From Escherichia coli (GTDB taxonomy: Bacteria > Pseudomonadota > Gammaproteobacteria > Enterobacterales > Enterobacteriaceae), in assembly GCF_003334815.1 (NCBI RefSeq), contig NZ_QOWO01000004.1: a DNA stretch of 64,000 nucleotides; one strand, written 5' to 3'. The position numbers were made by a program, and so were the translations under genes. Below the pieces are notes generated by a model. It worked only from the letters and a program-made list of their open reading frames with translations, did no database searches and had not been told where the DNA came from. Of the stretch, positions 1,452 through 2,109 are shown piece after piece; the stretch's first letter is position 1; each line of letters opens with the position of its first letter.

Positions 1452-1629
1452 TGTTTATTTATCACTTTGGCAGAGTAATTATCCTGTGCACTATTAATAG
1501 CAATGTCGCCATGCACATTTACCTTGCAGTTAATTGAATAAAAATTTAACTGGCATCAGTCCTAAAAAAATTGATTTCATCCGCAGGCTATTGACAGAAT
1601 AATTCAGACTGGTCTTTCAGGCATCCAGA

Positions 1630-1641
1630 CACGCTACCGCC
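1630..1641 (-). promoter_or_regulatory. ops element (GGCGGTAGCGTG) within JUMPStart-like leader of the capsule operon
   Basis: Minus strand reads GGCGGTAGCGTG, a full match to the ops consensus GGCGGTAGnnTG, about 180 nt upstream of the wza start codon. Confidence 0.6.
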
Positions 1642-2109
1642 CCTGGCTTTTTAGCTACCAATACACTGATTTAGCTTAATTTTTCAAACCCTCTCTGCAT
1701 ACAATCGTTGATGAGAAAGGGTTATTGCGGAAATTAACTTCCGAATATAAGGTGACATTATGGTAATTGAATATTGGCTCTCCAATAATGCAGGAGGAAG
1801 TGTTACAGCTAACGGAATAGCAGGCAAGGTAACAATTCGGCAATTGGCTATTTTTAAGAATTATATTAAGTGTCATTCAATATGGTTTTTAGGAGTTTCT
1901 TTAGGTTGACAATATTTAATATTGCGTCTCCACATGCGATATTTCTTAAATAATGTTTTATTATTACCACTTTTAATTCAGGGATAATGTGAGGTTATTA
2001 CCCTCAAATAATATGAGATAAATAGTGCTGCAACATTGCATTTTTGCCCCGATTTATCCATGATCGAATTGTGACATTTGTCATACAACGAATAGGTTTT
2101 GTACTTACT

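Follow-up and report, generated by a model that had tools for sequence, protein, structure and literature searches.

The wza-yegH Intergenic Region

The stretch of DNA analyzed here, hereafter called the window, spans 64 kb and begins inside the colanic-acid operon, which runs past its left end. The first gene of this operon, wza (312-1451, minus strand), encodes an outer-membrane polysaccharide export protein of 379 aa, according to both the list of open reading frames and the RefSeq annotation of identical or near-identical loci; the second gene, wzb, is represented by its 5' part (1-306, minus strand), placed by comparison with an annotated locus (L001). The divergent neighbour yegH (2110-3693, plus strand) codes for a TerC-family membrane protein and bounds an intergenic spacer of 658 bp (1452-2109). 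The G+C content of this spacer is 34.8% versus 53.5% in wza, 53.1% in yegH and 50.6% in the whole window, and the spacer thus displays the low G+C of an H-NS-silenced regulatory region.

We compared the spacer with those of well-studied strains of the species. It matches that of K-12 MG1655 with 99% identity, equal length (658 bp) and no indels, an alignment that the sequence-only reading of this DNA had proposed as a check. The 13 substitutions separating the two all fall upstream of the JUMPstart element considered below, namely in the variable part of the leader, the promoter and the region on the yegH side. Identity with CFT073 is also 99% without indels, with just three substitutions in the stretch that links the promoter core to JUMPstart. 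From JUMPstart onward to the wza ATG, the window is 100% identical with both strains. Judged by its sequence, the window carries the ordinary E. coli control region of the colanic-acid (M-antigen) genes wza-wcaM. Of 5426 complete E. coli genomes, 4832 carry a single copy of the spacer, nearly always with at least 95% identity. The other 594 genomes have no match and 13 more have only a partial one; our guess is that the end of the colanic-acid locus has been replaced or deleted in the 594, for example in strains with group 1 capsules.

Elsewhere in the window, the spacer between yegH and asmA (3694-4144) is polymorphic in E. coli, being 451 bp long here and 273 bp in K-12, while in O157:H7 PV15-279 it measures 745 bp and contains a RelE/ParE toxin paired with an HTH antitoxin. 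When used as a query, this spacer matches one to eight places per genome (median three), and its part from about 3790 to 4000, as delimited by a partial match, recurs elsewhere in the genome. It also contains two sub-threshold Rfam matches, one to TwoAYGGAY (3795-3938, 31.5 bits vs. a gathering score of 43) and one to a REP/naRNA4-like hairpin (4049-4121, 33 bits vs. 59.5). Above their gathering thresholds are a Sib antitoxin RNA (17600-17748, plus strand, 142 bits), CyaR (31867-31952, plus strand, 101 bits) and a TPP riboswitch (48210-48306, minus strand, 71 bits). No tRNA genes were found within the 64-kb window.

The ops and JUMPstart Element

The sense (non-template) strand of wza carries an exact ops 12-mer, GGCGGTAGCGTG (1630-1641, minus strand), the 5' G of which lies 190 nt before the ATG of wza, the gene that opens a long operon. 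It includes the ops core GGCGGTAG within the 12-mer consensus GGCGGTAGnnTG, and the very same 12-mer is reported for the CFT073 sites wzx, rfaQ, tssH and c4518 (PMC9765446). No other match exists in the window, even with one mismatch permitted; at that stringency, shuffled windows average 0.26 matches. The 12-mer forms the 3' end of a complete JUMPstart element of 39 nt, CAGTGTATTGGTAGCTAAAAAGCCAGGGGCGGTAGCGTG (1630-1668, minus strand), which matches Rfam family RF01707 with 57.3 bits (gathering score 35) over model positions 1-38 of 38, with an E-value of 1e-11 in the region and of 1.6e-10 over the entire window. Because a unique, exact 12-mer ends a full-length match of this strength, the ops call is correct, far beyond chance. 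The sequence-only reading had reported just such a full ops match on the minus strand, in an AT-rich region of about 650 bp upstream of wza, and both statements are borne out. Its interpretation of the match as an ops element of a JUMPstart leader is likewise supported by the location on the sense strand, at -190 from wza, as in the CFT073 site that is positive for RfaH by ChIP.

A second copy of the core GGCGGTAG is found at 2222-2229 (minus strand); it shares the strand of wza but sits within yegH, to which it is antisense. We rejected it as an ops element for its lack of TG at positions 11-12, TTTT rather than nnTG following the core. Its presence also in Salmonella is explained by the conserved KLPP codons of YegH, which encode the same letters.

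The element is already known as the JUMPstart/ops of the colanic-acid operon leader (Hobbs and Reeves 1994; Stout 1996). The former defined the 39-bp JUMPstart element and the latter described the cps promoter region; later papers refer to both for the statement that wca transcription uses JUMPstart-RfaH antitermination and is activated by RcsA and RcsB. Described in the mid-1990s, curated as a family in Rfam and directly backed by RfaH ChIP on the identical sequence, the element carries little weight as a discovery. The first-stage call was nevertheless correct, and to it we can add a sharper map of the region that distinguishes the leader, the promoter, the upstream sites and the yegH side.

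Conservation among Enterobacteriaceae

The wza loci of 80 species of Enterobacteriaceae were then compared. The divergent order of yegH and wza is kept in 76 of these loci, with spacers mostly of 650-760 bp, and the ops core lies 186-199 nt before wza in 73, of which 62 have the identical 12-mer. Within the JUMPstart element, 52% of the columns are invariant in an alignment of 25 species and the mean frequency of the major allele is 0.87.

A multi-genus alignment of the spacer, read in the direction of wza and analyzed only up to about 1950 in its yegH-proximal part, has a clear partition. The leader between ops and the ATG (1452-1629, minus strand) contains four well-conserved blocks, and the segment from the promoter to JUMPstart (about 1669-1791, minus strand) is variable among species in both sequence and length. 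The distance from the -10 element to ops varies from about 140 to 180 nt, whereas the promoter core and the blocks upstream of it keep a fixed spacing. From this alignment, the rest of the spacer appears to be made up of the promoter, upstream activator sites and the control region of the divergent yegH.

Exceptions to this pattern were few. In the group of Pseudescherichia vulneris (loci L036, L037 and L040), JUMPstart and ops are missing altogether from the stretch about 100-270 nt before wza, while the promoter blocks and the start-proximal leader are retained; in Citrobacter sp. On2M (L006), the ops core is mutated to GGaCGGTAG. The element must therefore be dispensable in some lineages. 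In C. amalonaticus (L046), ops lies 308 nt before wza because of an insertion of about 118 nt in the leader, between the block ATTAACTGCA and the start-proximal block.

The Promoter and the Extent of the Leader

The only candidate for the wza promoter that is conserved across genera is a core at 1799-1827 (minus strand), predicted to consist of a -35 element TTGCCT (1822-1827), a spacing of 17 nt with an extended TG (1806-1807) and a -10 element AACACT (1799-1804). In 77 loci, most positions of the sequence CCTTGCCTG...TTAGCTG(C/T)AACA(A/C)T show conservation of at least 95%, the -10 element reading AACAAT in most genera and AACACT here. Such weak -35 and -10 elements would fit a promoter that depends on activators. 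The promoter assignment rests on conservation because the transcription start is deduced rather than mapped; wza is not mentioned in those supplementary files of the start-site paper of Kim (2012) that were examined.

Setting the start 7-8 nt past the conserved -10 places it near 1791. The rigid spacing upstream of the -10 element and the free spacing downstream of it are what would be expected where a leader follows a promoter that has phased activator sites, and from this contrast we deduce that the 5' untranslated leader of wza probably extends for about 340 nt (1452 to about 1791, minus strand; 5' end predicted). The ops element would then occupy about +151 to +162 of the transcript. A scan for sigma-70 promoters returned one match, TGGAGA-16-CATAAT at 1757-1784, which we rejected as the main promoter; since this stretch is not conserved beyond Escherichia, it could be at most a secondary promoter. 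The element lies about 150 nt below the conserved promoter and about 110 nt below this alternative one, so that it falls within the transcript predicted from either; its transcription is also implied by the RfaH ChIP of CFT073, where the site is identical. The sequence-only reading had treated the entire intergenic region (1452-2109) as a long leader. That description holds for some 340 nt and has to be given up for the 658 bp as a whole, the remainder being promoter, activator sites and the yegH side.

Two additional items from annotation and literature concern this part of the spacer. The 49-aa 'hypothetical protein' WP_162829205.1, annotated by PGAP at 1760-1909 on the plus strand and in many E. 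coli including CFT073, is almost certainly not a gene, because its K-12 copy has an in-frame stop and because it overlaps the promoter blocks. Moreover, the forward primer of a published 'wza promoter'-lacZ fusion, AAAAGCCAGGGGCGGTAGCG (PMC11112850), begins inside JUMPstart; the fusion (window region 1452-1656) therefore contains only leader downstream of the conserved promoter core, and any activity of it would imply an internal promoter within the leader.

Upstream Blocks and Candidate RcsAB Boxes

Upstream of the promoter core we searched for the RcsAB box, which is reportedly due to Wehland and Bernhard in 2000. The consensus used, TaAGaatatTCctA, and the assignment of its half-sites follow PMC3950696. 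The wza-yegH spacer contains no match to this consensus with up to three mismatches. With four mismatches there are three matches at two sites, 1855-1868 (on both strands) and 1890-1903, a number that, on sequence grounds, does not exceed what shuffles produce (1.6 +/- 1.4). What had been called a weak RcsAB-box-like sequence upstream is thus fairly described, and the weight of these sites comes only from their conservation in different genera, where their spacing to the promoter core is constant.

The first site corresponds to the block TAATATAATTCTTA (1855-1868, minus strand), which resembles the RcsAB box on the plus strand (TAAGAATTATATTA, four mismatches). It is nearly invariant across genera, and in nearly all loci its start precedes the end of the -10 element by exactly 72 nt. 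The second lies in the block TTGTCAAcc-TAAAGAAACTCCTA (1890-1912, minus strand), in which GTCAA...AATCCTAAAA is conserved across genera. This block provides the best match to the half of the box on the RcsB side (tatTCctA), with four mismatches to the 14-mer; its portion at 1890-1903, centred about -105 from the predicted start, contains TCCTA without mismatch, the half-site ascribed to RcsB. A distal block, TAAGAAATATCGCA (1935-1948, minus strand), shows five mismatches to the consensus; the sequence TTTAGGA(A/T)ATATCGCA occurs in most loci of Escherichia, Citrobacter, Salmonella, Enterobacter and Kosakonia and is absent in several more distant genera. A text search of the literature with the candidate box sequences returned nothing relevant to a published RcsAB box of wza.

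RNA Structure versus DNA Recognition

Rfam models JUMPstart as an RNA with a hairpin of five base pairs, following the report of a conserved stem-loop among JUMPstart elements, which were made an Rfam family (Weinberg et al., PMC2864571). It could thus be argued that the element is mainly an RNA signal, in which a stem-loop of the nascent leader is active, for instance as a site of protein binding or processing, rather than an ops read in DNA. In our alignment, all five pairs of the hairpin are indeed retained in 24-25 of 25 species, and the 27 nt upstream of ops are conserved as well, beyond the needs of ops recognition. However, none of these pairs shows a compensatory double change among the 25 species, the variation being limited to U-G/U-A alternation and one C-G. 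Folding of the single sequence does not return the Rfam hairpin as the minimum-energy structure, and its energy is no better than that of shuffled sequences (z = -0.03); the 149 nt leading up to the wza ATG also fold no better than shuffles (z = +0.51). RNAalifold applied to the leader alignment yielded just the JUMPstart hairpin and two short helices, without compensatory changes. A structured leader RNA was set aside in view of this lack of covariation and of unusual stability, and JUMPstart appears to behave as a sequence signal, as expected for an ops element that is read in DNA. Since RfaH ChIP and the established reading of DNA by this factor explain the ops part without RNA structure, we consider it improbable that the element works mainly through RNA.

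Silencing, Activation, and Probable Loading of RfaH

Experimental evidence on the wza ops comes from Hustmyer et al. (2022, PMC9765446), who catalogued the ops sites of CFT073 in full. Data set S2 of this study lists GGCGGTAGCGTG at 2424955-2424966, in the non-template strand of the leader and at -190 from wza. The site is positive in RfaH ChIP in an hns stpA double mutant, in which alone RfaH occupancy at wza is seen, and the signal is absent on deletion of rfaH; in wild-type cells the wza promoter is covered by H-NS, and only the double mutant shows a sigma-70 peak upstream of wza (PMC9765446). The published coordinates agree with those of the RefSeq record of CFT073 that we aligned to the window. 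In view of this agreement and of the identical sequence from JUMPstart to the ATG, the RfaH ChIP of CFT073 applies to the sequence of the window.

Combining these data, we are highly confident that the wza region consists of a promoter activated by RcsAB and silenced by H-NS, followed by a leader in which RfaH loads at ops. Initiation would take place at the weak, activator-dependent sigma-70 promoter predicted at 1799-1827. Its AT-rich surroundings would normally be silenced by H-NS and the promoter would be turned on by RcsA-RcsB bound upstream; both steps are established for the colanic-acid locus, while the exact positions of the promoter and of the boxes are those that we infer for the window. 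RNA polymerase would then transcribe JUMPstart about 150 nt into the leader of some 340 nt, whereupon the paused elongation complex would expose ops (1630-1641) on its non-template DNA strand, to be read by RfaH. For ops in general, it has been shown that RfaH reads the exposed non-template strand, stays with RNA polymerase, excludes NusG, cuts pausing and Rho-dependent termination and helps polymerase through H-NS filaments (PMC9765446 and work cited there); for the sequence of the window, the ChIP of CFT073 shows the recruitment of RfaH. By extension of this general mechanism to wza, bound RfaH would replace NusG and suppress pausing, Rho-dependent termination and H-NS roadblocks, and transcription would presumably reach the end of the operon, which has 20 genes and about 24 kb. 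By analogy, RfaH would be required for transcription of the operon at its full length under natural induction by Rcs.

A different view would be that ops at wza, though conserved, is a relic of minor function, with expression being set essentially at initiation by the balance of RcsAB and H-NS and with RfaH contributing little. In wild-type CFT073 grown in rich medium, wza is silent with RNA polymerase at background level, and wza-wcaM has been termed a cryptic RfaH-regulated locus by the authors (PMC9765446); the loss of JUMPstart in the P. vulneris clade and the mutated core in one Citrobacter locus point in the same direction. Against these observations, 73 of 80 species retain ops in position and sequence, a conservation far above that of the third codon positions of wza, and RfaH is recruited at the wza ops of CFT073 once the promoter is active (PMC9765446). 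A relic thus seems to us very unlikely, even more so than an RNA signal. As to a chance match of the 12-mer in AT-rich intergenic DNA, 21 of 100 shuffled windows do hold at least one match with up to one mismatch, but the exact match is embedded in a 39-nt family match (E = 1e-10), has the correct orientation and position and is conserved across genera, so that this negligible possibility is already refuted by the RF01707 match, the CFT073 ChIP and the conservation among species.

Conserved Blocks between ops and the Start Codon

Loading of RfaH at ops, the preferred reading, leaves the leader below ops to be considered. Four blocks stand out in the alignment of 25 species: TATTCTGTCAATAG (1588-1601), TTTTTAGGACTGATGCCAGTTA (1547-1568), ATTAACTGCA (1525-1534) and a start-proximal block ending in GCACAGGATAATTACTCTGCCAAAGTGATAAATAAACA (1452-1500), all on the minus strand, the last being nearly invariant with a mean major-allele frequency of 0.90. 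The frequency of the major allele in the four blocks ranges from 0.84 to 0.91, compared with 0.71 for the third codon positions of wza and 0.87 for JUMPstart. Among the genera of Enterobacteriaceae, the blocks therefore roughly equal JUMPstart in conservation and far exceed the third codon positions. The wza ATG is not preceded by a canonical Shine-Dalgarno sequence (AAAGTGATAAATAAACAATG), a situation that may relate to ribosome loading assisted by RfaH. This factor can couple or tether the lead ribosome through S10.

We tentatively propose, with more doubt than confidence, that the four blocks represent an undescribed element for post-initiation control of the capsule operon. Candidate roles could be the binding of a small RNA or protein, ribosome loading in a form adapted to the coupling of RfaH with S10, or the nucleation of H-NS; regarding the latter, GTGATAAATA resembles tCGATAAATT, which we take to be the nucleation motif of H-NS. 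Two more specific possibilities were dismissed. Binding of CsrA at the conserved GGA motifs (CACAGGATAA, TTTAGGAC and GCGGATGA) was discounted, since the wza 5' UTR formed no CsrA complex by EMSA in work on EPEC, the same study that found colanic-acid genes to be up by as much as 50-fold in a csrA mutant (PMC6333774). A leader peptide MPVKFLFN (ATG CCA GTT AAA TTT TTA TTC AAT TAA, in frame with a conserved TAA) was rejected, as its start ATG is replaced by ATA or ATT in 6 of 25 species and the conservation is not codon-like. The blocks below ops are the only part of the region that might still hold something undescribed, and they pose a small question on how a stress-induced capsule operon is controlled after initiation.

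Comparison with Known RfaH-Dependent Leaders

The closest known system is the colanic-acid (cps/wca) leader of K-12, which is the same element at the same locus of another strain, with the same spacer of 658 bp; beyond the 13 single-base differences, nothing of substance distinguishes it from the window. The wza ops of CFT073 is equally close, with the identical 12-mer at -190 and the identical sequence from JUMPstart to the ATG, even if wza and wzb are flagged as pseudogenes in the RefSeq record of that strain, whereas wza in the window is intact with 379 aa.

Leaders with JUMPstart/ops that depend on RfaH are also found at the O-antigen cluster downstream of galF (listed as wzx in PMC9765446), at waaQ (rfaQ), at hlyCABD, in kps region 3 and in F tra. 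In common with wza, these have a long 5' leader whose non-template strand bears the ops consensus, in front of a long, AT-rich and H-NS-bound operon for components of the cell surface or for secreted ones. The difference resides in initiation, since the other operons are transcribed in ordinary laboratory culture while the wza promoter is silenced at this step and needs RcsAB. The distance from ops to the first gene also varies among these systems, from -71 in the O-antigen cluster to -634 at hlyC, with wza at -190.
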